In this document: positions 12,043 to 32,993 of the stretch, piece after piece
How the letters are laid out: each line of letters begins with the position of its first letter
How positions within the stretch are numbered: the first letter of the stretch is position 1
Assembly: GCF_001677475.2 (NCBI RefSeq)
Contig: NZ_CP015229.1
Length of the DNA stretch: 64,000 nt
Strand: one strand, 5' to 3'
DNA from: Escherichia coli
GTDB taxonomy: Bacteria; Pseudomonadota; Gammaproteobacteria; Enterobacterales; Enterobacteriaceae
Made by a program: the position numbers and the translations under genes
Notes under the pieces: generated by a model
Seen by the model: the letters and a program-made list of their open reading frames with translations, nothing else
Told to the model about the DNA's origin: nothing
Database searches by the model: none

Positions 12043-12501
12043 ATGACAATCACGGACCTGGTACTGATTCTTTTCATCGCCGCACTCCTGGCCTTCGCGA
12101 TCTACGATCAGTTCATCATGCCCCGCCGTAACGGCCCCACTCTGCTGGCAATTCCTTTGCTCCGGCGTGGTCGCATCGATAGCGTTATATTCGTCGGATT
12201 GATTGTCATTCTTATCTATAACAACGTCACGAATCATGGCGCGCTAATAACAACATGGTTATTAAGTGCACTGGCTCTGATGGGTTTTTATATATTCTGG
12301 ATCCGCGTTCCGAAGATCATCTTTAAACAAAAAGGTTTTTTCTTCGCCAATGTCTGGATTGAATATAGCCGAATCAAAGCGATGAACTTGTCGGAAGATG
12401 GCGTGTTGGTGATGCAATTAGAACAGCGTCGGCTGTTAATCCGCGTTCGAAATATCGACGATCTAGAAAAAATTTATAAGCTTCTCGTTTCAACTCAATA
12501 A
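12043..12501 (+). CDS. yobD: UPF0266 inner-membrane protein YobD
   Basis: 152-aa hydrophobic [27 protein letters not shown]. Confidence 0.8.
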
Positions 12502-12698
12502 GTTATGAATTTAGCCAAAGCTATGTTTAGTGTATTTTTAATAATCAGACATAGCTTAGGCTATATTACCTCTTCCCTTATTTGTTATTTATTTTAACGT
12601 TTCATTGATATATAAATCTAAATGAAAATCGTTATCAATAAAGCAATGAAATAATATATTCCAACAGTTGTTTATGAGACGACAATAACTCAGTCCGC

Positions 12699-12720
12699 CT
12701 GGCGCCGATTATTCTGGCCG
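12699..12720. repeat. Left terminal inverted repeat of the IS21-family element (ctggcgccgattattctggccg)
   Basis: Hand alignment: 18 of 22 positions match the reverse complement of 15035-15056. Confidence 0.5.
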
Positions 12721-12765
12721 GTTTTGTAACCTGAGTGTCATTTACATGATCCAACAGGAAATGGC

Positions 12766-14265
12766 GTGACGCTCAATACTTCTCAGGTCAGTTACTATAT
12801 GACTCAGCGTAAGAAAGGTATAACTCAGCATATCTCGGCCATGAAGGCTGGTATCTCAGTCCGTTCTGGTCGTCGGATCGAAAAAGGAGAGTGGGCAAAA
12901 AACAGTGTTCGGCACTGGCGCACACGCAAAGATCCTCTGGAAGCTGTGTGGGACAGCATGCTTGTTCCTCTGTTGAAAGAGAGGCCGGCTCTGACACCAA
13001 CAACTCTACTGGAGATGCTACAGGATAAATATCCCGGCCAGTACCCCAACAGCCTTCGAAGAACAATGCAACGGCGGGTTCGCGAATGGAAACTACAGTA
13101 TGGTACAGAGCAGGAGGTCATGTTCCGCCAGCAACATCAGCCCGGCCTGCGAGGCCTGTCGGACTTTACTGAACTGAAAGGTGTAGTTGTCACCATCGCC
13201 GGTAAGTTGTTGGCGCATAAGTTGTATCACTTCCGTCTGGAATGGAGCCACTGGAGCTGGATGCGGGTTGTTCTGGGTGGTGAGAGCTTCTCTGCTCTGG
13301 CTGAAGGCCTGCAGGAAGCCCTCGGACAACTGGGCGGAGTGCCGGTAGAACATAAAACGGACAGCCTGAGGGCAGCATGGAAACAACAGGGCGAAGATGG
13401 ACGCCGCGAGCTGACTGAGCGTTATGCTACTCTCTGTCAGCACTACGGAATGCAGGGCGTACACAATAATGCCGGTCGGGGCCACGAAAATGGCTCGGTT
13501 GAAAGTGCCCACGGACATCTGAAAAGGCGTATCTGTCAGGCGCTGATACTGCGGGGCAGTAACGACTTCAGCACCATAGAAGAATATCAGGCCTTCATCA
13601 CTCAGCAGGTTATGCGGCACAACCGTAACAATCAGGATCTGGTCAAGGAAGAACGTCTTCATCTGAAACCGCTGCCGCTTCGTCGCAGTGCTGACTATGA
13701 TGAGCTGACTGTGAGGGTTAGTCGCAGCAGTACCATCAATGTGAAGCACGTCGTCTACAGCGTACCTTCCCGGCTTGTAGGTCAACTGTTACGGGTCAGG
13801 TTATGGGACGATCGTCTGAGCTGTTACGTTGGCAGCAGCGAGGTCATGAGCTGCCCTCGCGTCAGACCAGAAAAAGGGAAGACGCGGGCCCGTCGTATCG
13901 ACTTCCGACATGTGATCGACAGTCTGGCAAAAAAGCCCGGTGCGTTCTGCCATGCAACGCTGAGAAATGACATCCTGCCGGACGATGAATGGCGGAGGCT
14001 GTGGCGTCGCTTATGTAATCATCTGGAGCCCGATATGGCAGGAAGGCTGATGGTACATGCCCTGAAACTGGCTGCAGGATACGACGATATCTCAGTCGTG
14101 GCAAAAGGTATGGAGCAGATGCTGAATACCCCGGGAAACGTGGATCTGCACCGGCTGATGCGCTTCCTGGGTATAAAAGAAAAGGCGTTGCCGGTAGTCA
14201 ATGTGATACAGCATAACCTGAGCAGTTATGAGCAACTACTGCGTGGCAAGGGAGGTTCGCAGTGA
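12766..14265 (+). CDS. istA: IS21-family transposase IstA
   Basis: 499-aa ORF from GTG at 12766 (alternative in-frame ATG at 12799); N-terminal HTH-like region, large catalytic domain; stop overlaps istB start. Confidence 0.8.
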   Translation: MTLNTSQVSYYMTQRKKGITQHISAMKAGISVRSGRRIEKGEWAKNSVRHWRTRKDPLEAVWDSMLVPLLKERPALTPTTLLEMLQDKYPGQYPNSLRRTMQRRVREWKLQYGTEQEVMFRQQHQPGLRGLSDFTELKGVVVTIAGKLLAHKLYHFRLEWSHWSWMRVVLGGESFSALAEGLQEALGQLGGVPVEHKTDSLRAAWKQQGEDGRRELTERYATLCQHYGMQGVHNNAGRGHENGSVESAHGHLKRRICQALILRGSNDFSTIEEYQAFITQQVMRHNRNNQDLVKEERLHLKPLPLRRSADYDELTVRVSRSSTINVKHVVYSVPSRLVGQLLRVRLWDDRLSCYVGSSEVMSCPRVRPEKGKTRARRIDFRHVIDSLAKKPGAFCHATLRNDILPDDEWRRLWRRLCNHLEPDMAGRLMVHALKLAAGYDDISVVAKGMEQMLNTPGNVDLHRLMRFLGIKEKALPVVNVIQHNLSSYEQLLRGKGGSQ

Positions 14266-15017
14266 GCAATATCCATCACCTTGAACATAGCCTGCGTAAA
14301 CTACGCCTGACACGAGTTGGAGCTGAATGGCACGCTCTGGAAAAACGAGCGCTGGCAGAAGGCTGGACACCATCGCGCTATCTTCTGACGCTATGCAATG
14401 AAGAACTCCTGTGGCGCGAGAGTGAAAAACTGCGTCGTTATAAAAAGGAGGCCCGGTTGCCAGTTGCCAAAACGCTGAGCGAATACGACTTCAGTCAGGT
14501 GCCGGAACTGAATGGAGCTCAGTTCCGGCAACTCTGTGAAACGACAGACTGGGTTGATGCAGGAGAAAACGTTCTGCTGTTCGGAGCCAGCGGGTTGGGG
14601 AAAAGCCATCTGGCGGCAGCGATCGTGGATGGCGTAGTAGGTCAGGGCTACCGGGCCCGGTTCTACAGCGCAGGAGAGCTGTTGCAGGAACTACGTAAAG
14701 CCAGAGCTCAGTTGAAACTGAATGAGCTGCTACTGAAACTGGATCGCTACCGGGTGATAGTGGTGGATGATCTTGGCTATGTCAAACGCGATAGTGCCGA
14801 AACGGGTGTGCTGTTCGAGTTAATAGCGCATCGCTATGAACGTGGGAGCCTGGTGATAACCAGTAACCATCCGTTCAGCATGTGGGGCAGCATCTTCGTG
14901 GATGAGACTATGGCGGTGGCTGCGGCAGACAGGCTGCTCCATCACGGATATATGTTCGAACTGAAAGGGGAAAGCTACAGGAAAAAGACAGCGAAGGCAG
15001 TAACAAGCGCGACTTGA
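14262..15017 (+). CDS. istB: IS21-family helper ATPase IstB
   Basis: 251-aa ORF with Walker A (LLFGASGLGKSHLAAAI) and Walker B-like (VIVVDDLGY) motifs; translationally coupled to istA. Confidence 0.85.
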   Translation: MSNIHHLEHSLRKLRLTRVGAEWHALEKRALAEGWTPSRYLLTLCNEELLWRESEKLRRYKKEARLPVAKTLSEYDFSQVPELNGAQFRQLCETTDWVDAGENVLLFGASGLGKSHLAAAIVDGVVGQGYRARFYSAGELLQELRKARAQLKLNELLLKLDRYRVIVVDDLGYVKRDSAETGVLFELIAHRYERGSLVITSNHPFSMWGSIFVDETMAVAAADRLLHHGYMFELKGESYRKKTAKAVTSAT

Positions 15018-15034
15018 TGTCGCCCTGAAGGGTG

Positions 15035-15056
15035 CGGCCAGTATAGTTGGCGCGAG
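15035..15056. repeat. Right terminal inverted repeat of the IS21-family element
   Basis: Reverse complement ctcgcgccaactatactggccg pairs with 12699-12720 (18/22). Confidence 0.5.
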
Positions 15057-15121
15057 TCGGCAAAACTAGTTGACGTCTAATAGTTGTTTTATATTCTCAA
15101 AATATGTTAAGGTTGCGCCCT

Positions 15122-15346
15122 CATTTGGGGAGTAGCCGATTTCCAGATTCCGGAAATGTACGTGTCAACATACTCGTTGCAAAACGTGGCACGTACGGAC
15201 TGAACACTTTCAGTCAGGCGAGACCATATGCACATCAATCGCTATGCCTGCATGAACGCGAAAACCCGTCGCGGCTTGTTGTTCATGTATGCATGTTTGC
15301 TGGGGGCGATGATGTGTTTTATGGATACCCCGGTCAGGACGTTGTC
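15122..15346 (+). promoter_or_regulatory. mntP 5' leader with predicted yybP-ykoY manganese riboswitch (extent approximate)
   Basis: Long untranslated leader before the mntP ATG beginning with ggggagtagcc near the expected transcript start; the E. coli mntP leader is known to hold an Mn riboswitch; structure not folded here. Confidence 0.5.
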
Positions 15347-15913
15347 ATGAATATCACTGCTACTGTTCTTCTTGCGTTTGGTATGTCGATGGATGCATTT
15401 GCTGCATCAATCGGTAAAGGTGCCACCCTCCATAAACCGAAATTTTCTGAAGCATTGCGAACCGGCCTTATTTTTGGTGCCGTCGAAACCCTGACACCGC
15501 TGATCGGCTGGGGAATGGGCATGTTAGCCAGCCGGTTTGTCCTTGAATGGAATCACTGGATTGCGTTTGTGCTGCTGATATTCCTCGGCGGGCGAATGAT
15601 TATTGAGGGTTTTCGTGGCGCAGATGATGAAGATGAAGAGCCGCGCCGTCGGCACGGTTTCTGGCTACTGGTAACCACCGCGATTGCCACCAGCCTGGAT
15701 GCCATGGCTGTGGGTGTTGGTCTTGCTTTCCTTCAGGTCAACATTATCGCGACCGCATTGGCCATTGGTTGTGCAACCTTGATTATGTCGACATTAGGGA
15801 TGATGGTTGGTCGCTTTATCGGCTCAATTATTGGGAAAAAAGCGGAAATTCTCGGCGGGCTAGTGCTGATCGGCATCGGCGTCCAGATCCTCTGGACGCA
15901 CTTCCACGGTTAA
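15347..15913 (+). CDS. mntP: Manganese efflux pump MntP
   Basis: 188-aa membrane protein [25 protein letters not shown]; ORF-track N-terminal extension (15104) rejected. Confidence 0.85.
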
Positions 15914-16719
15914 TAAGAACGCTGCCAGAGGTGAATATTAAAGTCCGTCTGGCAGTCGAACACTTCTTTTGCTACCAGTGTTTGCCAGACTTCTGGCTTC
16001 GCACGCCAGGCAAACGGCGTCATCTGCAATAATGCGACGGCTTCGTCACCGCGAAGACGCATCGGATAACACAACTCATCACTCTGCTGTAATGTAAAAC
16101 CTTCCAGTTGTTCTGCATGTGGTGCATGAAGATGTACTTCATTGTAAATCAGCCCCTTCAGCTCCATCAAATGTCGCGGTCCCGGCGTGGCAGTAATGAC
16201 CCAACCGCCAGGCTTCACTACTCGCGCTAATTCTTCTGCTTTACACGGCGCGTAAATACGTATTATGGCGTCCATACTGGCATCGGAAAACGGCAAACGG
16301 TGGCTGGAAGCAACACAAAAAGTGACCTGCGGATAGCGTTTCGCCGCCGCTTTTATCGCTACCTTCGAGACATCCAGGCCAAACGTGGTGATTTCGGGCA
16401 GCGCATCGGCAAATGCGTGTGTGTAATACCCTTCACCACAGCCAATATCCAGCACCGCCGTGGCCTTTTCATCAAGCCGTTCCCGCAGTTGGGCGACAAT
16501 TGCATCACGCAGCGGCTGATAATGTCCGGCATCTAAGAATGCGCGGCGTGCTTGCATCATTTCCGCGCTGTCGCCCGGATCACGAGACCGTTTATGCTGA
16601 ACGGGCAGCAGATTGACATACCCTTCTTTCGCCATATCAAACTGATGTCGCTGGGGACAGATATAGCTGTTTTTTTCACGCGAAAGAGGCTGATGGCAAA
16701 GTGGACAGGAAAACGACAT
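15910..16719 (-). CDS. rlmA: 23S rRNA m1G745 methyltransferase RlmA
   Basis: 269-aa ORF with N-terminal Cys4 zinc ribbon (CPLCHQ...CPQRH) and SAM methyltransferase motif DIGCGEGYY. Confidence 0.85.
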
Positions 16720-16804
16720 GACAACTCCGGCAGGATACTAAAGGCCGCAAGTGTAACGCGAATCACGCGGCGGGCAAATATCCGAACGCCAGGAGCGAAG
16801 ATAA

Positions 16805-16840
16805 AGCAAAGTAAAAAGCCTCGCATTCGACGAGGCTTTA
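16805..16840 (-). terminator. Rho-independent terminator after cspC
   Basis: Stem aaagcctcg/cgaggcttt with T-run on minus strand. Confidence 0.55.
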
Positions 16841-16884
16841 TAGCGAGATTGAAGCGTATTCACACTTCAGATCAGTGGATTCGA

Positions 16885-17094
16885 TCAGATAGCTGTTACG
16901 TTAACAGCTGCCGGACCTTTCTGGCCGTCCTGAATTTCGAACTCAACGTTCTGACCTTCAGCCAGAGTTTTGAAGCCATTACCCTGGATAGCGGAGAAGT
17001 GTACGAACACGTCTTTGCTGCCATCAGCCGGAGTAATGAAGCCAAAACCTTTAGACTCGTTGAACCACTTAACCTGACCTTTAATCTTTGCCAT
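16885..17094 (-). CDS. cspC: Cold-shock-domain protein CspC
   Basis: 69-aa [23 protein letters not shown] with RNP motifs. Confidence 0.95.
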
Positions 17095-17106
17095 TTGAAA
17101 AATTCC

Positions 17107-17250
17107 TTAGATTGTTTTCTTCGCCCGCAGGCATAACATAGATAAAACTGACACATTACTGCATGAGGCACCAATATAAGGCTCGGCAGAGAAGCGGTAT
17201 TCAACGTCAACGTGTTTACTCAGGACTTCTTTACTGAAAATGCCACACAT
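17107..17250 (-). CDS. yobF: Small protein YobF (47 aa), co-transcribed with cspC
   Basis: Hand translation of minus strand: [47 protein letters not shown]; absent from ORF track (below 60 aa). Confidence 0.8.
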
Positions 17251-17919
17251 AAACAGAACTGTACCTCGTTTAACCCGAAATCTGTTATCACATACAACGT
17301 TAATTATGGCAAGCCATTTTTAAACATGTCTCGATCAGACGCACAAATCTCGATACGTCTTCCACTTTTTTTGCACACTTATGCAACGGAATACGCGCCG
17401 ATATATCATTGTGCTTAACCTTGCCAGTTCAGGCAGATACTTAAACTGACGTATTTTCTAACATAGTTCAATAAGTTCAGTTGTTCCAGGCCAGTAGGAG
17501 AAGTTATTACATAGTGCGTGCAATATCACATTTTCTGCTATGCAATGAATAAAAAGTTATATCACTTTTTCTCATAAAACAGTCAGTTAACGGCCACCAA
17601 TTACCCCAAAGAGAAGTCAATCCCCAATGGTATTGTAAATTTAAAATAAGAAAAATTGATGAATGCGCAAAAAAATCAAGAGAGAAACGTTTCGCTAATA
17701 AATAATACCACGCTTAATCACAAATCCGATGTAAACATCCTAATAAATTAATGGGCTAAATATCTTTTTCTGATATCTCGTTACGCAAATAAATAATATG
17801 ATAATTATTTGAAGTCAGACCAGAGTTTTAATTTGAAGCAGTTGCACCATGACAGTGCGTATAATCAGGATGAATTGAGTAACCCTTCAACGACGGGGTT
17901 ACTCAAGATTGAGGAAGGA

Positions 17920-18207
17920 TTATCGTTCGGCGACCAGACGAATAATATCTTCGTCTTCAACCGATTTTTGACTCTCAACGGTCTTTTTATCTGCTTTCTC
18001 TGGTTCATTTGCTTCGCACAAACGACGTAACAGTGCATTTTGACGTTTTTGCTGATCCAACAACGCCTCAAGCAGTTCAATCTGTTCGTTAGTCCGTGAA
18101 CTGGCACGATTGATAAAAAACCACAAGATGAGCCCGATAAGAAGAACCACCACCGATACAACCAAAGACGCTATGTTCATCACGCCTGAATTTACAACTT
18201 CGTTCAT
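17920..18207 (-). CDS. yebO: Small membrane protein YebO
   Basis: 95-aa ORF, one N-terminal TM helix then charged coiled region. Confidence 0.8.
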   Translation of the reverse strand: MNEVVNSGVMNIASLVVSVVVLLIGLILWFFINRASSRTNEQIELLEALLDQQKRQNALLRRLCEANEPEKADKKTVESQKSVEDEDIIRLVAER

Positions 18208-18281
18208 TTCACCACCTCTGAGTAGAGGCGCTATTCTACCACTGCTGGAGAGGAAGAAAATCTAGTGCTGAAAAAATGATA

Positions 18282-18425
18282 TCACCACGGGATAAACTGG
18301 TTAATGGCACAAATTCCGCTGAAAAATTGTACATCCTGATCGCACATCATGTTGAATACCTGCGCCCAAAGCAGCAAGCAAGCCAACACCACGACAACCA
18401 GAACGACCCATCGAAACTTTTTCAC
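18282..18425 (-). CDS. mgrB: PhoQ-inhibiting small membrane protein MgrB (47 aa)
   Basis: Hand translation of minus strand from GTG: [47 protein letters not shown]; absent from ORF track. Confidence 0.85.
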
Positions 18426-18583
18426 TCCAATCTCCGTTTCACCTACCTTATGTCATTAAACTAGCATGCGTTAGTTAAACAGCGCCTAACTATGTCGATA
18501 TTCGTGCTTTTTCAGAATGAGTCGCTTGCTTCAGCGCATATTGCCGCTACGATTAAGCGAACATAAAAAGAGAAGAGGTTGTA

Positions 18584-18823
18584 ATGCGATTCATCATTCG
18601 CACAGTTATGCTGATAGCACTGGTATGGATAGGATTATTACTCAGCGGATATGGCGTTTTGATTGGAAGCAAAGAGAATGCCGCGGGATTAGGTTTGCAA
18701 TGTACCTATCTGACCGCCAGAGGCACCAGCACGGTACAATACCTGCACACTAAAAGTGGTTTTCTGGGGATAACAGATTGCCCGTTGTTACGTAAAAGCA
18801 ATATTGTGGTCGATAATGGTTAA
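18584..18823 (+). CDS. yobH: Small protein YobH
   Basis: 79-aa ORF MRFIIRTVMLIALVWIGLLLSGYG with signal/TM N-terminus. Confidence 0.75.
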   Translation: MRFIIRTVMLIALVWIGLLLSGYGVLIGSKENAAGLGLQCTYLTARGTSTVQYLHTKSGFLGITDCPLLRKSNIVVDNG

Positions 18824-18920
18824 GGGTAATAAATAACCAGATTCTCACTCATGAGTAAAATATTCTTATCGCAAGTGCGTTTAATATAACGCCACCTTCA
18901 ACTTTATTTTTCTCATGCTA

Positions 18921-18959
18921 AATAAAGAACCTGTCTGTTTGATATTCAGACAGGTTCTT
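18921..18959 (-). terminator. Terminator hairpin after kdgR
   Basis: 13-bp perfect stem aagaacctgtctg/cagacaggttctt immediately after the kdgR stop. Confidence 0.5.
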
Positions 18960-18966
18960 ACTCTCA

Positions 18967-19758
18967 TCAGAACGGATAGTCGTGATAACCCATTTGGGCA
19001 GAAATTTTGCGCGCTGCGGTATGCAACATTGCGACATATTCCTGTAAACGCTCTTCAGAGAAACGCAACGTCGGGAAGGAGATGCTAAGACCGGCAATGA
19101 CCACGCCAAAGCGATCAAATACCGGAACCGCAATGCATCGCAGCCCTTCTTCCTGCTCTTCGTTATCTTCGCCATACCCCTGCTCACGCACCTGGTCCAG
19201 AACGGGTAATAACGCTTCTGTACTGGTGATGGTCCGCTCGGTACTGCATTTATACTCCACGCCCTCAAGAATTTGCTTCACTTCATCGCGATCGCGCCAT
19301 GCCAGCAGTACCTTACCAATCGCGGTGCTGTACAGCGGATTACGACGCCCAATCCGTGAATACATGCGCAAATTGTACATAGAGTCAATTTTATGGATGT
19401 AAACAATACTGTCTTCGTCCAGTGCGCCGAGGTGGATAGTTTCTTTGGTCAGGCGGGAGATCTCACGCATCTGGATATCTGCGCTACGAATTAAATCGAC
19501 GTTTTGTAACGCGCGAGCGCCCAGTTCAAACAATTTCAGGGTCAGGGAATATTTCTCCGACTCCCCTTCCTGCGCCACATAACCTAAGGTTTTCATGGTC
19601 TGTAAAAAGCGATAAACGGTGCTTTTTGACATCATGACGCGCTGCGACAGCTCGGTTATCCCTATTTCGCGCTCTTCACCCAGCGCCTGCAAAATGCCAA
19701 AAACTTTTAGCACGGAAGATACAGAATCAGGCTGTTTATCCAGATCTGCGTTAGCCAT
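18967..19758 (-). CDS. kdgR: IclR-family repressor KdgR
   Basis: 263-aa ORF with N-terminal HTH (SVLKVFGILQALGEE) and IclR effector domain. Confidence 0.85.
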   Translation of the reverse strand: MANADLDKQPDSVSSVLKVFGILQALGEEREIGITELSQRVMMSKSTVYRFLQTMKTLGYVAQEGESEKYSLTLKLFELGARALQNVDLIRSADIQMREISRLTKETIHLGALDEDSIVYIHKIDSMYNLRMYSRIGRRNPLYSTAIGKVLLAWRDRDEVKQILEGVEYKCSTERTITSTEALLPVLDQVREQGYGEDNEEQEEGLRCIAVPVFDRFGVVIAGLSISFPTLRFSEERLQEYVAMLHTAARKISAQMGYHDYPF

Positions 19759-19934
19759 TTATCACCTCATTGCGAGTGTTTTATAAAAATCAGAACTGTT
19801 TTTTATTATAATTTCGCACCAGGGTGGTCGCAATCCATCTTTTGCCGGTTAGTTACAATTCTGCGACATCCACCGTGAATATCAGTGCTAGAATCATACC
19901 CCTGTTGATTATTCACCAAAGATATAAAATTCCT

Positions 19935-21308
19935 ATGCCAAAAGTTCAGGCCGACGGCCTGCCGTTGCCCCAGCGATACGGTGCGATATTAACCATTGTG
20001 ATTGGTATTTCGATGGCTGTCCTTGACGGCGCAATCGCCAACGTCGCCTTGCCAACAATCGCCACGGACCTTCATGCCACGCCGGCCAGTTCCATCTGGG
20101 TAGTGAACGCCTATCAAATCGCCATTGTCATCTCCCTGCTCTCGTTTTCGTTTCTGGGCGATATGTTTGGCTATCGACGTATTTATAAATGCGGTCTGGT
20201 CGTTTTTCTGTTGTCTTCACTGTTCTGCGCCCTTTCTGATTCGCTGCAAATGCTCACCCTTGCGCGCGTCATACAAGGTTTCGGCGGTGCAGCGTTGATG
20301 AGCGTTAATACCGCACTTATCCGCCTGATCTATCCACAACGTTTTCTGGGTAGAGGGATGGGCATAAACTCGTTTATTGTTGCCGTTTCTTCTGCTGCCG
20401 GGCCGACAATTGCTGCAGCAATCCTCTCCATCGCATCCTGGAAATGGTTATTTTTAATCAACGTACCGTTAGGTATTATCGCCCTGCTTCTGGCCATGCG
20501 TTTTCTGCCACCCAATGGTTCTCGCGCCAGTAAACCCCGTTTCGACCTGCCCAGCGCCGTGATGAACGCGTTAACCTTCGGCCTGCTTATCACTGCGTTG
20601 AGTGGTTTCGCTCAGGGGCAATCGCTGACGTTAATTGCTGCGGAACTGGTGGTAATGGTTGTAGTTGGTATTTTCTTTATTCGCCGCCAGCTTTCTCTTC
20701 CCGTACCGCTGCTACCGGTGGATTTACTGCGTATCCCGCTGTTTTCACTTTCTATTTGCACATCTGTTTGCTCTTTCTGCGCACAAATGCTGGCAATGGT
20801 TTCCCTGCCCTTTTACCTGCAAACCGTGCTCGGGCGTAGTGAAGTCGAAACAGGTTTACTTCTGACACCGTGGCCGTTAGCAACGATGGTGATGGCTCCG
20901 CTGGCAGGCTATTTGATTGAACGCGTACATGCAGGATTGCTGGGTGCTTTAGGGTTGTTCATCATGGCTGCGGGGCTTTTTTCCCTGGTTCTGCTGCCCG
21001 CGTCACCTGCGGATATCAATATTATCTGGCCGATGATCTTATGTGGTGCTGGATTTGGCTTATTCCAGTCACCCAATAACCACACCATTATTACCTCAGC
21101 TCCTCGCGAACGTAGCGGTGGAGCCAGTGGCATGTTAGGAACGGCCCGTCTACTGGGTCAGAGTAGCGGCGCGGCGCTGGTGGCGCTGATGCTAAATCAG
21201 TTTGGAGATAATGGTACGCACGTCTCGCTGATGGCTGCGGCTATTCTGGCAGTGATTGCTGCCTGTGTCAGTGGTTTACGTATCACTCAGCCACGATCCA
21301 GGGCATAA
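19935..21308 (+). CDS. yebQ: MFS transporter YebQ
   Basis: ORF 19824..21308 trimmed to MPKVQADGLPLPQRYG (457 aa); about 14 TM segments. Confidence 0.8.
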   Translation: MPKVQADGLPLPQRYGAILTIVIGISMAVLDGAIANVALPTIATDLHATPASSIWVVNAYQIAIVISLLSFSFLGDMFGYRRIYKCGLVVFLLSSLFCALSDSLQMLTLARVIQGFGGAALMSVNTALIRLIYPQRFLGRGMGINSFIVAVSSAAGPTIAAAILSIASWKWLFLINVPLGIIALLLAMRFLPPNGSRASKPRFDLPSAVMNALTFGLLITALSGFAQGQSLTLIAAELVVMVVVGIFFIRRQLSLPVPLLPVDLLRIPLFSLSICTSVCSFCAQMLAMVSLPFYLQTVLGRSEVETGLLLTPWPLATMVMAPLAGYLIERVHAGLLGALGLFIMAAGLFSLVLLPASPADINIIWPMILCGAGFGLFQSPNNHTIITSAPRERSGGASGMLGTARLLGQSSGAALVALMLNQFGDNGTHVSLMAAAILAVIAACVSGLRITQPRSRA

Positions 21309-21339
21309 AAAAAGCGCGTCGATCAGGACGCGCTTTTTA
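21307..21339. terminator. Bidirectional terminator between convergent yebQ and htpX
   Basis: Stem aaagcgcgtc/gacgcgcttt flanked by A-run and T-run. Confidence 0.6.
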
Positions 21340-21353
21340 GTATTTACTTCATA

Positions 21354-22235
21354 TTACTTCAGATATTCACCCGTACGCAGAGCTTCAATACGTTTATCCA
21401 GCGGCGGGTGAGTCATGAACAACTCACTGAGCGATTTCGACTTACCGTTAATGCAGAAAGCCATCATGCTGGTTGCTTCTTGCGGTTCATAGCTGGTTTT
21501 CAGGCGCTGCAGCGCGGCAATCATTTTCTCGCGACCAACCAGTTTTGCCGAACCGGCATCAGCATGGAATTCACGATGACGCGAGAACCACATGGTGATA
21601 ATGCTCGCCAGAATACCAAACACCAGTTCCAGAACCGTTGCAACCGCAAAGTAGATCAGCGGGTTGCCGTTACTCTCTTCACCTTCATCACGATTTCCGC
21701 CCATAAAACCCGCGGCAAGCTGCGCCAGAATACGGGAAATAAAGATAACGAAGGTGTTCACCACGCCCTGAATCAGCGTCATGGTGACCATATCACCATT
21801 GGCGATGTGGCTGATTTCATGAGCAATTACCGCCTCGGCTTCATCCGGGCTCATGTTCTGCAGCAAACCGGTGCTGACAGCAACCAGAGAGGCATCACGG
21901 CGCGCACCGGTTGCAAAAGCGTTGATGTCCGGCGCATGGTAGATAGCCACTTGCGGCATAGCGATCCCCGCCTGACGAGCCTGGGTTGCTACAGTATTGA
22001 CCAGCCAACGTTCCCTTTCGTTACGCGGTTGCTCGATCACTTCCCCGCCAACAGATCGTAATGCCATCCATTTGGACATCAGAAGCGAAACGAAGGAACC
22101 ACCAAAACCGAACAGCAAGGCCATGATCATCAGCCCCTGAACGCTGCTCGACTGTATCCCTGTCAGGCTCAGTACCAGCCCGAAAACGACCATTACGGCC
22201 AGGTTCGTTAGCAGGAAGAGCGCGATTCGCATCAT
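21354..22235 (-). CDS. htpX: Heat-shock membrane zinc protease HtpX
   Basis: 293-aa ORF with HEISH zinc-binding motif. Confidence 0.9.
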
Positions 22236-22390
22236 AATTTTCTTTTTACCTCAGTTTAACAAAACGCAATATGCGATACCCACATCGTATGGGTTACGCG
22301 ACTATTTTCAAGTCTGGATAGTGCGTAAGTCACCAGAAAGACACAACTTTACATTTTGTAGCATCTGATTTACGGCATCTTGCCGCTGTT

Positions 22391-22421
22391 AAAAAATCAG
22401 GCACAATTTCTTGTGCCTGAT
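22391..22421 (-). terminator. Terminator hairpin after prc
   Basis: Stem atcaggcacaa/ttgtgcctgat with T-run on minus strand. Confidence 0.5.
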
Positions 22422-22426
22422 TGATA

Positions 22427-24475
22427 TTACTTGACGGGAGCGGGTTGTTCCGCGGGTCTGGCTTTTTCAAGCTTCGCCAGATCGAGTGCGATATTCACCG
22501 TCTCATCCAGATAAGGATCCGGCTCCTGGTAATCTTTCGGTAGATCATCCAGTTTCTTCAACTCCGGTTTACCTTCGCGCTTAAAGCGTTCGTTCAAACG
22601 CGCCAGACGCGTCGCATCATCTTCATTATTCTCTTTCTCACGCACAGCGTAATTCAGAGAAACGATATTGCGCTTGTCCTTCATAGCGTTGAAGCGCGCG
22701 ATATCCTTCATGATGTTCTGGAACTCTGGATCTTTCGCGATACGCGCATTATGTTCCTTCAGCAGCTCCGGTCCAAAGGCCGTCAAATCTCCCGATTTCA
22801 CATAGGTCGCGGCATCGATGCTATCCCACGGCAGCGCGTTATCTTCGAATTTCTCACCGGTTTCCGTTTCTTCATTACCCGTCGGCATGATGATGTCTGG
22901 CGTTACGCCTTTACGTTGCGTACTGCCGCCGTTAACGCGATAGAATTTCTGGATCGTGTACTGCACAGATCCCAGCGCTGGCCATTCAGGACGTAACATC
23001 TGATCGTAGATACGGTTCAATGAACGGTATTGCTGAACGGTGCCTTTACCAAACGTCGGTTCACCCACAACCAGCGCACGACCGTAATCCTGCATTGCCG
23101 CGGCAAAGATTTCTGAAGCCGAAGCACTGAAACGGTCAACCAGTACCACCAGCGGGCCTTTATAGAAGACCTGTCCGTCGGTATCGCTGTCTTCACGAAC
23201 TTTACCGTTGTTATCACGGACCTGAACAATCGGGCCGGATGGAATAAACAGACCGGAGAGCGATACCGCTTCGGTCAGCGCCCCACCACCATTGCTACGC
23301 AGGTCGATGATGACGCTGCTGACATTCTGTTTTTCCAGTTTCTGCAGTTGCACTTTGACATCGTCTGTCAACCCCACATAGAAGCCCGGAATATCCAGCA
23401 CGCCGACTTTCTCTTTACCGACGGTCTTCACCGACATTTTAACCGCGCGATCTTCGAGACGAATACGTTCACGGGTCAACGTTACAGTACGGGTCTTGGT
23501 CCCTTTACCAGCGGGTAAAATTTCCAGACGAACTTTACTGCCCTTCGGCCCTTTAATTAAGGCAACCACATCATCAAGACGCCAGCCAATCACGTCAACC
23601 ATCGGCTTGCCTGTTTGACCAACACCGACAATTTTATCACCAACGCTGATAGCTTTACTCTTCGCTGCCGGACCACCTGCCACCATCGAATTGATAACGG
23701 TGTAGTCATCATCCATTTGCAGAACTGCGCCAATACCTTCCAGCGACAAACTCATTTCAGTGTTGAACTGTTCGGTATTACGCGGGGAAAGATAGTTGGT
23801 ATGCGGGTCGATTTCACGCGCAAACGCCGTCATTGCCAGCGAGAAAACATCTTCGCTGTTGGTTTGCGCCAGACGACGAATGGCAAATTTGTAGCGGCGA
23901 GTCAGGGTTTCACGAATTTCTTTATCCGTTTTTCCTGCCAGCTTCAGGCTTAACTCGTCGAATTTGACTTTACTGTCCCACAGCGCGTTCAACTCAGCCT
24001 CGTTTTTCGGCCATGGCGCTTTACTGCGGTCAAGGTTATAAGTGTCGTTGCCGGTAAAATCCATCGGCTTTTCCAGTACCGACAAAGCGTACTGGTAACG
24101 CTCAAAACGGCGCTTTTGCGCCAAATTGTAGAGATCGTAGAAAACGTCGAGTTTTCCTGAACGTAGTTCATCGCCTAACTCGGTTTTCTTTTTCGCGAAC
24201 TGTTCAACATCGCTTGCCAGCAGCACGTTGTGGCTGTAATCGAGCAGATTCAGATAGCGGTCAAAGATTTTGGCCGAAAATGCCTGATCGAGGTCGAACT
24301 GGCGATAATGAGAACGGGTGAAGCGCGACGTTACGCGCTCACTCACCGTCGCATGCTGCGTCTCTTCCTTTAATACCGGAATTTGATCAGCACGCGTGAT
24401 ATCTTCTACAGCGAAGGTCTGGCCTGCTATTGCAAGCAGGCCAGCTAACGCGGTAAGCCTAAAAAACATGTTCAT
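22427..24475 (-). CDS. prc: Tail-specific periplasmic protease Prc (Tsp)
   Basis: ORF 22427..24523 trimmed to MNMFFRLTALAGLLAIAGQTFA (682 aa); PDZ and S41 peptidase domains. Confidence 0.9.
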   Translation of the reverse strand: MNMFFRLTALAGLLAIAGQTFAVEDITRADQIPVLKEETQHATVSERVTSRFTRSHYRQFDLDQAFSAKIFDRYLNLLDYSHNVLLASDVEQFAKKKTELGDELRSGKLDVFYDLYNLAQKRRFERYQYALSVLEKPMDFTGNDTYNLDRSKAPWPKNEAELNALWDSKVKFDELSLKLAGKTDKEIRETLTRRYKFAIRRLAQTNSEDVFSLAMTAFAREIDPHTNYLSPRNTEQFNTEMSLSLEGIGAVLQMDDDYTVINSMVAGGPAAKSKAISVGDKIVGVGQTGKPMVDVIGWRLDDVVALIKGPKGSKVRLEILPAGKGTKTRTVTLTRERIRLEDRAVKMSVKTVGKEKVGVLDIPGFYVGLTDDVKVQLQKLEKQNVSSVIIDLRSNGGGALTEAVSLSGLFIPSGPIVQVRDNNGKVREDSDTDGQVFYKGPLVVLVDRFSASASEIFAAAMQDYGRALVVGEPTFGKGTVQQYRSLNRIYDQMLRPEWPALGSVQYTIQKFYRVNGGSTQRKGVTPDIIMPTGNEETETGEKFEDNALPWDSIDAATYVKSGDLTAFGPELLKEHNARIAKDPEFQNIMKDIARFNAMKDKRNIVSLNYAVREKENNEDDATRLARLNERFKREGKPELKKLDDLPKDYQEPDPYLDETVNIALDLAKLEKARPAEQPAPVK

Positions 24476-24494
24476 GCCTGGCCCGGCCTCCGTT

Positions 24495-25193
24495 TCAGAA
24501 CACCAGGTGTTCTGCGCGCACAATCAAAGACATACCCGAATTCAGCTGGACGCGGACGCCGTCTTTGGTGATTTCTAATACGGTGGCATCCATCGCGTTT
24601 TGACCCGCTTTCACCTTCAGGGCTTGTCCGACAGTCAGAGCTGAAATGTCAGAAACCGGGGTGTGCTGTTCTTCGCGAGGTGCTTTTACTGTTTTTGGCG
24701 CTTTCTCTACCGGCTTTTGCGCACGAGGTTTACGTTCAGCGCCTTCTTTGCGGCGTGGCGTGGTCGGACGTGGCTTGCGTTCGCGGCGCGGTGCGTCTTC
24801 TTTCTCACCAGCAGCTGCGGCAGCTTCGCGTTTTTTCGCTTGCTGTTCAGCACGCTGTGCCTGAACACGCGCTTTCGCTTCTTCAAGCTGCTTGCGAGCA
24901 TGCTCTACATGTTGCTCGTCCAGCTCACCGCATGGGTTGCCGTCAAGATCGACACGCGTTGCGCCGGGTTTAACACCGTAAAGGTAACGCCAGCTCGAAG
25001 TGTAGAGACGTAAAGCGGATCGCAATTGCGTTTTGCTCAGGTTCATTTCCCCGGCAACACGATCGACCAAATCCTGAAAAATACCGATTTTCAGCGGACG
25101 CGCTTCACCTTCCGCACTGAAACAGTGGGGAAAACGTTCGGCCAGAAACGCGATTACTTCTTTACTGCTATTCAACTTAGGTTGATTTTCCAT
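24495..25193 (-). CDS. proQ: RNA chaperone ProQ
   Basis: 232-aa [28 protein letters not shown]; FinO-like N domain, basic linker, C-terminal Tudor-like domain. Confidence 0.9.
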
Positions 25194-25289
25194 GAAATTT
25201 CCTGATTACAACGGACGTAGCCAACAAGCGCAGGCATGAACAGGCGTCATTATAATGACGCTATCAGTAAATGCTACGTTATCCGTTGA

Positions 25290-25787
25290 TTATCCTGCGA
25301 CGCTCGCAAAGAATTTTTTGTAATCCGTCGTTGCAAGCACTTTTTCAAGCTGTGCTACAAGCTGACGTAAGCCTTGCTCGTCCTCGTCTGTAAAGCGACC
25401 GAAGACGGTACTATCGATGTCGAGAACACCAATAATCTGATTTTTCACCACCAGCGGCAGAACAATTTCAGAATTACTCGCCGCATCACAGGCAATATGC
25501 CCGTCAAACGCGTGCACATCCTCGATACGCTGCACTTGATTGCGGGCAACCGCTGTGCCGCACACCCCGCGCCCGACGGGTATCCGAACACAGGCAATTT
25601 TGCCCTGAAATGGTCCGAGCACCAGTGTATCGTCCTCAAGCAAATAAAAACCTGCCCAGTTTACGTCAGTGAGACGCTCATATAACAACGCACTGGTGTT
25701 CGCAAGCGTTGCCAGAAAACTGGTTTCTCCTGCCATCAGCGCGTTAAAGTCGCGATTTAAATCCGCGTAAAATTCTGTTTTGTTCAT
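25290..25787 (-). CDS. msrC: Free methionine-(R)-sulfoxide reductase MsrC (GAF domain)
   Basis: ORF 25290..25841 trimmed to MNKTEFYADL (165 aa). Confidence 0.8.
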   Translation of the reverse strand: MNKTEFYADLNRDFNALMAGETSFLATLANTSALLYERLTDVNWAGFYLLEDDTLVLGPFQGKIACVRIPVGRGVCGTAVARNQVQRIEDVHAFDGHIACDAASNSEIVLPLVVKNQIIGVLDIDSTVFGRFTDEDEQGLRQLVAQLEKVLATTDYKKFFASVAG

Positions 25788-25916
25788 TATATAATCACTT
25801 GGTTGTCTTACCAGGAACTGCCAGCCTATTAAAATAAGCATTAAATGCGTTAATGCTCAAGATCATTCCCATCATGGGTTAAGATTAATGTTAATTCTTA
25901 TTACATTTGGCACGTC

Positions 25917-27200
25917 ATGGCTCTTAACACACCACAAATTACGCCGACAAAAAAGATAACAGTGAGGGCAATCGGCGAGGAACTGCCGCGTGGTGATTAC
26001 CAACGTTGCCCGCAATGTGACATGCTGTTTAGCCTGCCCGAGATAAATTCTCATCAGAGTGCCTATTGTCCGCGCTGTCAGGCAAAAATTCGCGACGGGC
26101 GCGACTGGTCGCTGACGCGCCTGGCGGCAATGGCGTTCGCTATGCTGTTGTTGATGCCGTTTGCATGGGGCGAACCGCTGTTGCATATCTGGCTGTTAGG
26201 CATTCGTATTGACGCCAACGTCATGCAAGGCATCTGGCAAATGACCAAACAGGGCGATGCGATAACGGGATCAATGGTCTTTTTTTGCGTTATTGGTGCC
26301 CCCCTCATTCTGGTGACCTCCATAGCTTATTTATGGTTTGGTAACCGACTGGGAATGAATCTACGTCCGGTACTGCTGATGCTTGAGCGACTGAAAGAGT
26401 GGGTAATGCTCGATATCTACCTGGTCGGCATTGGCGTTGCTTCTATAAAGGTACAGGATTATGCCCATATCCAGGCGGGTGTCGGCTTGTTCTCTTTTGT
26501 GGCGTTGGTGATTTTAACGACGGTGACGTTGTCACATCTCAATGTCGAAGAACTGTGGGAGCGATTTTATCCACAGCGCCCCGCTACGCGTAGAGACGAG
26601 AAACTCCGTGTCTGTCTTGGGTGCCATTTTACCGGCTATCCTGATCAGCGTGGTCGCTGCCCGCGTTGCCATATTCCGCTACGCCTGCGTCGCCGTCATA
26701 GTCTGCAAAAATGCTGGGCGGCGCTGTTAGCGTCAATCGTTTTGTTGTTACCTGCCAACCTGTTGCCTATTTCTATCATTTATCTGAACGGAGGACGGCA
26801 GGAAGATACAATTCTTTCCGGAATTATGTCGCTGGCGAGTAGCAACATTGCCGTTGCGGGAATCGTGTTTATCGCCAGTATTCTGGTACCGTTTACTAAA
26901 GTGATCGTCATGTTCACTTTACTGTTGAGCATTCATTTTAAATGCCAGCAAGGTTTACGCACACGCATTCTGTTACTGCGGATGGTGACCTGGATTGGTC
27001 GCTGGTCGATGCTCGACCTGTTTGTCATATCTTTAACCATGTCGCTGATTAATCGCGATCAGATCCTCGCTTTTACTATGGGACCGGCTGCGTTTTATTT
27101 CGGCGCAGCGGTAATTTTGACTATTCTTGCTGTGGAATGGCTGGACAGCCGCTTACTTTGGGATGCACATGAGTCAGGAAACGCCCGCTTCGACGACTGA
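25917..27200 (+). CDS. yebS: Paraquat-inducible-A-like membrane protein YebS (LetA)
   Basis: 427-aa ORF with two CxxC zinc-ribbon pairs and two PqiA-like membrane modules. Confidence 0.8.
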
Positions 27201-32719: not shown

Positions 32720-32993
32720 CTATAAAGTCAGCGAAGGGAATGCTTCTGGCTTTTAACAGATAAAAAGAGACCGAACACGATTCCTGTATTCGGTCCAGGG
32801 AAATGGCTCTTGGGAGAGAGCCGTGCGCTAAAAGTTGGCATTAATGCAGGCTTAGTTGCCTTGCCCTTTAAGAATAGATGACGACGCCAGGTTTTCCAGT
32901 TTGCGTGCAAAATGGTCAATAAAAAGCGCGGTGGTCATCAGCTTAAATGTTAAAAACCGCCCGTTCTGGTGAAAGAACTGAGGCGGTTTTTTT
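32720..32993 (+). ncRNA. ryeA: RyeA (SraC) sRNA, antisense partner of SdsR; ends approximate
   Basis: Plus-strand terminator (accgcc...ggcggt then TTTTTTT, about 32955-32993) between pphA and yebY; a RyeA transcript opposite SdsR is established for this locus; 5' end not determined. Confidence 0.35.
32762..32864 (-). ncRNA. sdsR: SdsR (RyeB) RpoS-dependent Hfq-binding sRNA
   Basis: Minus-strand sequence GCAAGGCAACTAAGCCTGCATTAATGCCAACTTTTAGCGCACGGCTCTCTCCCAAGAGCC...GTGTTCGGTCTCTTTTT matches remembered SdsR including the terminal hairpin and U-tail. Confidence 0.75.

Follow-up and report, generated by a model that had tools for sequence, protein, structure and literature searches.

An apparently intact mntP manganese riboswitch of the yybP-ykoY class below an ISEc10-like insertion in an Escherichia coli genome

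The stretch of DNA examined here (the window) comprises 64,000 nucleotides of the Escherichia coli contig NZ_CP015229.1 (assembly GCF_001677475.2). Within it, the gene for the manganese efflux pump MntP stands in a gene order of the E. coli type, yobD (12043-12501), mntP, rlmA (-), cspC (-) and kdgR (-), and the yobD-mntP interval is collinear with that of K-12, an insertion sequence (IS) excepted. The principal features between yobD and the end of mntP are as follows.

12674-15081, + strand: ISEc10-like element of the IS21 family, 2408 bp, transcribed toward mntP
15104-15346, + strand: N-terminal extension (81 codons) of a 269-aa open reading frame (ORF), outside the MntP models and regarded as an artefact
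15121-15230, + strand: Mn2+ aptamer (yybP-ykoY, four-way junction), the first 110 nt of the leader, from RF00080, the minimum free energy (MFE) fold, covariation and comparison with K-12
15228-15350, + strand: 40-aa ORF, the "hypothetical protein" WP_000547919.1 called by PGAP in some +C-allele genomes, probably spurious
15231-15346, + strand: expression platform, from family-wide alignments, covariation and the full-leader MFE
15347-15913, + strand: mntP coding sequence, 188 aa (NF008546 equivalog, PF02659; RefSeq start in K-12 and FDAARGOS_497)

The MntP equivalog model NF008546 scored 412.9 bits against a cutoff of 214, its positions 1-188 aligning with residues 82-269 of the 269-aa frame. 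This alignment places the mntP start ATG at 15347-15349, in agreement with the RefSeq start in K-12 and FDAARGOS_497, and the equivalog match is full-length from that annotated Met; Pfam PF02659 likewise matches the protein. Upstream of it, 225 nt (15122-15346) separate the inferred mntP promoter from the ATG, and coding potential is unsupported in this interval. The preliminary description had assigned about 225 nt of noncoding sequence to the same place, which is borne out, with the start possibly one base earlier than the 15122 given there: the published K-12 numbering (A11 in L1, A48 in L3; PMC12153347) fits only if +1 is 15121. Counted from 15121 the leader is 226 nt long here and 225 nt in K-12, because the window allele has one extra C. 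The sequence quoted for the beginning of the leader, GGGGAGUAGCC, was confirmed within it as GGGGAGTAGCC at 15127-15137.

A scan of the whole window against Rfam at gathering thresholds returned no match to the yybP-ykoY family (RF00080), and only RyeA, SdsR and a cspA-type leader were reported. In a local 501-nt search run without the gathering cutoff, RF00080 was the sole family matched, at 15119-15215 on the + strand with 41.9 bits and E = 5e-10 (about 6e-8 when rescaled to the whole window, by our own scaling). The match is thus significant, on the correct strand and directly upstream of a Mn-exporter gene. The default scan was silent because 41.9 bits lies below the RF00080 gathering score of 45 bits, a cutoff set for operational use that marks no biological feature. 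The validated leader of K-12 MG1655, with 41.6 bits in the same search, also falls short of 45 bits, as do 11 of the mntP leaders from 20 other Enterobacteriaceae species (range 35.5-55.6 bits). The low score is therefore a property of the model in relation to this clade and not a defect of the present copy. The Rfam scan proposed in the preliminary description was accordingly answered in two ways, by a match below the cutoff and by silence at the gathering threshold. Its further proposal, that the lack of a covariance-model hit should count against the riboswitch, misfires if taken literally, given the K-12 score. A gathering-threshold scan is a false negative on a validated riboswitch and on about half of the enterobacterial orthologues, so the absence of a default Rfam match should not be taken as absence of the element. 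The RefSeq feature tables of K-12 and FDAARGOS_497 also carry no riboswitch feature at the mntP locus.

The RNAs that did pass the gathering thresholds lie elsewhere in the window. The cspA thermoregulator match (RF01766, 135.7 bits) covers the cspC gene and its leader at 16810-17270 on the - strand and adjoins mntP in other genera too. SraC/RyeA (32758-32902, + strand) and SdsR/RyeB (32762-32861, - strand) form an overlapping antisense sRNA pair, each matched over its full length with a score far above the gathering threshold.

The elements of the aptamer were assigned to the window as follows.

15122-15128/15224-15230, + strand: helix P1
15129-15134 and 15220-15223, + strand: loop L1 (GGAGUA / GAGA)
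15135-15137/15217-15219, + strand: helix P1.1
15139-15146/15150-15157, + strand: helix P2
15158-15164/15190-15196 and 15175-15178/15183-15186, + strand: helix P3
15165-15173, + strand: loop L3 (UCAACAUAC)
15198-15204/15209-15215, + strand: helix P4

The metal-site loops L1 (GGGGAGUAG ... GAGAC) and L3 (GUCAACAUAC) are both present and unchanged. Their columns are invariant over 72 distinct enterobacterial sequences and align to the RF00080 consensus with high posterior probability; together, these two conserved loops form the metal site. In the folding check that the preliminary description had suggested, 15121-15231 on its own gave the expected four-way junction, which is the MFE as well as the centroid structure (-37.5 kcal/mol; z = -3.39 against dinucleotide shuffles). 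The mntP loci of 80 species representatives provided the 72 distinct aptamer sequences that were aligned for covariation. Standard pairs occupy 93.9% of cells in helices P1, P1.1, P2, P3 and P4, compared with 25-46% in slid controls in which the partners were shifted by 1-3 columns. Compensatory changes on both sides were found at 20 of the 36 pairs, P4 covarying at all seven of its pairs, and the observed values were reached by none of 500 shuffles. The P1/P1.1/P2/P3/P4 junction is thus supported by covariation.

These data bear directly on the possibility that the likeness to RF00080 is due to chance or is that of a degenerate remnant, a reading to which the empty gathering scan of the whole window would lend itself. 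The local E-value, a score equal to that of the validated K-12 reference, the invariant L1 and L3 columns and strongly covarying helices among the 72 relatives, and the scores of the 20 orthologues refute it, and we give it virtually no credence. An intact aptamer of the yybP-ykoY class is the reading we retain.

The leader differs from that of K-12 at five places in total. The sole difference in the aptamer is T>C at 15205, which opens the P4 tetraloop; C at this position is shared with FDAARGOS_497 and several other Escherichia. As a whole, the aptamer has exact counterparts in other E. coli strains. Three of the differences, an extra C within the run 15265-15267 and A>G at 15268 and at 15271, fall at the hypervariable tip of the expression-platform hairpin. 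The last is A>G at 15341 in the spacer between the Shine-Dalgarno (SD) sequence and the AUG, where G is the family majority and K-12 is therefore in the minority. None of the five touches L1, L3, P1, P1.1, P2, P3, the P4 stem, the anti-P1 strand, the GGGG/CCCC elements or the Shine-Dalgarno sequence, so that the comparison with the reference leader that had been called for reveals one P4-loop base in the aptamer and no disrupting mutation in any helix, loop or SD. The best leader match among 5,422 complete E. coli genomes was 99.6% identical, with one mismatch at 15268, and the G at this hairpin-loop position is private to the window, having no counterpart in those 5,422 genomes. Over 12 kb (15082-27000) the best complete E. 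coli genome is 98.9% identical. In an evenly spaced sample of the ranked complete E. coli genomes, the K-12-type allele of 224 nt accounts for roughly 80% and the +C allele for roughly 17%.

We are therefore highly confident that 15121-15346 is the mntP 5' leader and that it carries, in intact form, the Mn2+ riboswitch already known from E. coli mntP, a member of the yybP-ykoY class (Rfam RF00080). Judged by its sequence, it is the orthologue of the experimentally characterised K-12 element. The suggestion in the preliminary description that this structured leader is consistent with a yybP-ykoY manganese riboswitch is upheld by the RF00080 E-value, the z-score of the fold and the covariation in 72 relatives.

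Downstream of the aptamer, the expression platform was resolved into the following elements.

15231-15242, + strand: conserved platform strand b
15243-15298, + strand: variable, optional apical hairpin
15299-15305, + strand: GGGG strand (GCUGGGG)
15306-15324, + strand: conserved anti-P1 strand, complementary to 15224-15242 (the P1 3' strand and the next 12 nt)
15328-15334, + strand: CCCCGGU
15336-15339, + strand: Shine-Dalgarno AGGA

In the family alignment 96.2% of cells in the platform helices are paired, compared with at most 47% in slid controls, and compensatory changes occur at 15 of 31 pairs overall. The anti-P1 helix (15224-15242/15306-15324) shows them at 9 of 18 pairs across Enterobacteriaceae and the base of the variable hairpin at four of six. 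The helix formed by the GGGG and CCCC strands (15299-15305 with 15328-15334), which abuts the Shine-Dalgarno sequence, shows them at two of seven pairs, both from one clade and hence possibly reflecting a single event. The full anti-P1 helix and the GGGG/CCCC helix are mutually exclusive by topology. For the full leader, MFE folding gives the anti-P1 state, with the freed 5' UUGGGG (15125-15130) paired to CCCCGG (15328-15333), and the predicted energy gap between the anti-P1 and the aptamer-enforced states is 3.6 kcal/mol here and 3.8 kcal/mol in K-12. The P1/P1.1 switch region is thus alternatively paired with the expression platform, as befits a riboswitch of this class. Partition function calculations, run with the leader free, with the aptamer enforced and with anti-P1 forced, placed the SD in pairs each time, mostly with coding sequence, and so do not tell the states apart.

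The apical hairpin (15243-15298) behaves as an optional module, while the flanking anti-P1 and GGGG/CCCC elements stay conserved: it is long in species of the Citrobacter freundii complex, 13-14 nt shorter in the cryptic Escherichia clades and E. albertii, and absent from Enterobacter, Kosakonia, Cedecea and others. A terminator-like hairpin at 15257-15273 was considered and rejected. It is the tip of this variable hairpin and is absent in K-12-type alleles, other Escherichia species lack 13-14 nt there, and its apparent T-run (GCUUGUUGUU) is the 3' strand of a larger helix, hence no terminator.

In the four-way-junction aptamer of K-12, Mn2+ stabilises L1 and the switch helix P1.1; in the absence of Mn2+ the two are invaded when ~205 nt have been transcribed (PMC12153347). 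Co-transcriptional probing of the K-12 leader described a single platform helix folding from about 175 nt, with the switching point at about 205 nt and no clear Mn-dependent reactivity in the RBS region in vitro (PMC12153347). Placed on the window, these landmarks correspond to about 15295 and about 15325, and the position of the anti-P1 strand agrees with them. Translation of mntP increases with Mn2+, which also relieves part of the Rho-dependent termination; the latter acts in the mntP leader and early coding region as a further layer of control (PMC11647493, PMC12360218).

The comparison identifies the invading strand as 15306-15324, which pairs with the P1 3' strand and the sequence downstream of it (15224-15242). 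We propose that in the Mn-free state the released 5' UUGGGG would pair with CCCCGG just upstream of the SD, and this pairing would close the leader and disfavour initiation; with Mn2+ bound, P1 would hold and the SD region would be more open. The step from P1 disruption to exclusion of the ribosome is hypothetical, in the published work too. With all switch elements unchanged in the window, the riboswitch should function like that of K-12, and near-identity to the K-12 orthologue, for which both properties have been demonstrated, suggests that the window allele would bind Mn2+ and raise downstream expression. The covariation found for the anti-P1 helix and for the SD-adjacent GGGG/CCCC helix may help with the unsettled question of how the aptamer communicates with the RBS.

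A different account of the leader is that it codes for protein, either as part of a 269-aa MntP begun at 15104 or as a 40-aa peptide coupled to mntP through an ATGA overlap. Both frames are indeed open, the extension from 15104 being in frame with mntP here. The 40-aa ORF, which runs from its ATG in the P1 3' strand through the whole expression platform, is annotated by PGAP as a hypothetical protein in some genomes, and its stop overlaps the mntP ATG. However, the MntP equivalog NF008546 spans residues 82-269 of the long frame only, and a 1-nt indel swaps the frames in the K-12-type alleles, which make up about 80% of complete E. coli genomes and in which the extension is out of frame with mntP. 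Across genera, the open length upstream of the mntP ATG varies from 3 to 91 codons, the ATG at 15228 is AGG, AGA or TGG in most genera, and the conserved AUG/GUG in the anti-P1 strand lies in frame 0, 1 or 2 according to genus. Neither leader ORF has a family match, a literature search found no upstream ORF linked to the mntP leader, and the ATGA overlap exists because the Met-Asn start of MntP is conserved. An upstream ORF, whether the 40-aa frame or one of 9-13 codons running from the anti-P1 strand to the ATGA overlap, was likewise rejected as conserved coding sequence, since the frame varies by genus. We consider a coding leader highly improbable and interpret the leader ORFs, from these comparisons, as artefacts of a structured, stop-poor RNA, in line with the earlier dismissal of the 269-aa frame; the PGAP call of the 40-aa ORF in +C-allele leaders is probably a mis-annotation.

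The insertion upstream of this leader and the promoter elements around it comprise the following.

12509-12526 and 12549-12566, + strand: two MntR-box-like palindromes, from a pattern search (the two best in the window, with 2 and 1 mismatches)
12666-12673: target-site duplication AGTTGTTT, 8 bp, left copy
12766-14265, + strand: istA
14262-15017, + strand: istB (NF033546/NF038214 equivalog matches for IstA and IstB, above cutoffs)
15070-15097, + strand: hybrid promoter-like site, TTGACG in the IS right end (15070-15075), 16 nt and native TATTCT (consensus match only)
15082-15089: target-site duplication AGTTGTTT, right copy, overlapping the inferred -35
15084-15113, + strand: inferred native core promoter, -35 TTGTTT at 15084-15089 and extended -10 TGtTAAGGT at 15105-15113, with a start near 15121

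The element belongs to the IS21 family by its istA and istB genes, its imperfect terminal inverted repeats, its target-site duplication and the occurrence of full-length copies elsewhere: 2408-bp copies of 99.8% identity, annotated as ISEc10 family, are found at unrelated sites in other E. coli genomes. Collinearity with K-12 breaks at its ends (12674/15081), and none of 5,426 complete E. coli genomes has the IS/mntP junction. The right end lies ~40 bases upstream of the leader start (about -40). The preliminary description had held that the state of the riboswitch matters for interpreting the adjacent IS, aptly so, as the insertion overlaps the -35 region and leaves the leader untouched.

The native promoter is placed by inference from the UTR length of 225 nt reported for mntP and from the A11/A48 numbering. 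From 15082 onward (-39 to +1) the sequence is identical to that of K-12; the -35 region was duplicated as part of the target site, which leaves the core promoter in place, while everything upstream of about -40 is replaced. The native mntP promoter is too weak to pass a sigma-70 consensus scan of 14900-15450, in which the hybrid site was the only match (one found, 0.8 expected by chance). Its outward TTGACG sits 6 bp from the IS right end; occurring at chance frequency, the site is only a lead. The two palindromes, which we take to be MntR sites from their likeness to the known mntH-type box, lie in yobD-proximal intergenic DNA of 24% GC. The IS puts them 2.4 kb further from the promoter, and in K-12 they would centre near -187 and -147 from the mntP start.

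The insertion would thereby change the transcriptional input of mntP, displacing AT-rich upstream DNA that bears the putative MntR boxes while the core promoter is kept, and the likely consequence would be altered, possibly constitutive, transcription into an unchanged riboswitch. A stronger version, which modifies the main reading and does not exclude it, holds that the riboswitch is intact and its context has been broken or rewired by the IS, mntP being transcribed from the hybrid promoter or by istAB read-through, or largely losing its transcription; the leader would then be either the sole element still responding to Mn or a silent relic. The position of the IS end and of the duplication over the -35, the displacement of the MntR-like boxes with their AT-rich surroundings, and the hybrid site as the only consensus promoter match all speak for it. 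The ist genes moreover point toward mntP, and there is no + strand terminator-like site between istB and the leader. H-NS silencing of mntP, relieved by MntR and Mn-Fur, has also been reported (review, PMC8632737). On the other hand, the core promoter is identical to that of K-12 from -39 to +1, the hybrid promoter match is at chance frequency, and the positions of the MntR, Fur and H-NS sites come from sequence patterns and secondary sources. We regard such rewiring as a serious possibility, though one to which we would give something less than an even chance.

Its most specific form, in which the IS strips mntP of its H-NS/MntR/Fur-controlled upstream region and perhaps adds a stronger -35 (TTGACG), so that transcription would be constitutive and the riboswitch, together with Rho, the sole Mn sensor, is a conjecture that we think unlikely. 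If true, it would be a natural promoter swap equivalent to laboratory T7A1-promoter constructs. IS-mediated uncoupling from MntR would in any event be a minor, strain-specific curiosity. What is settled for annotation is that the leader is noncoding, that mntP starts at 15347, that the riboswitch is undamaged and that the IS affects the promoter-upstream region only.

Promoters generated by insertion sequences arise from an outward -35 in the IS end, as in the IS21 junction promoter. The window site resembles these in having an outward TTGACG suitably spaced from a native -10-like hexamer; it differs in being a candidate by consensus only, and in that the native core promoter is also kept by the target-site duplication.

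Firmicute yybP-ykoY riboswitches (B. subtilis yybP and ykoY, L. lactis yoaB) share with the present element the four-way-junction aptamer, the conserved L1 and L3 and the switching on of Mn exporters. They act mainly through an intrinsic terminator and antiterminator. In contrast, no convincing terminator is present in the mntP platform of the enterobacteria, where 15257-15273 is the single terminator-like match, and this platform acts on translation and Rho.

The K-12 mntP (yebN) leader is said to have been described as a Mn2+ riboswitch of the yybP-ykoY class by Dambach et al. in 2015. The second E. coli member of the class, the alx (SraF) Mn2+/alkaline-pH riboswitch, has the same L1/L3 core and translational control of a Mn exporter (PMC12153347). 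It differs in forming a three-way junction with two platform helices, including an intrinsic terminator, and in its pH dependence, whereas the window element has a four-way junction and the single-helix platform of the mntP type.

The closest known system is the K-12 mntP 5' UTR riboswitch itself (Stephen et al. 2025, PMC12153347; Prakash et al. 2024, PMC11647493). The mntP Mn2+ riboswitch is already known and well studied in E. coli. The two copies occupy the same locus, yobD-mntP-rlmA-cspC, and have the same aptamer save one P4-loop base. They also agree in L1, L3, P1.1, the anti-P1 strand, the CCCC/GGGG elements, the SD, the Rfam score and the predicted ON/OFF energy gap. The window copy is distinguished from that of K-12 by its "+C" allele of 225/226 nt, which about 17% of complete E. 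coli genomes share, by the private A>G at 15268 and by the ISEc10-like element at about -40.
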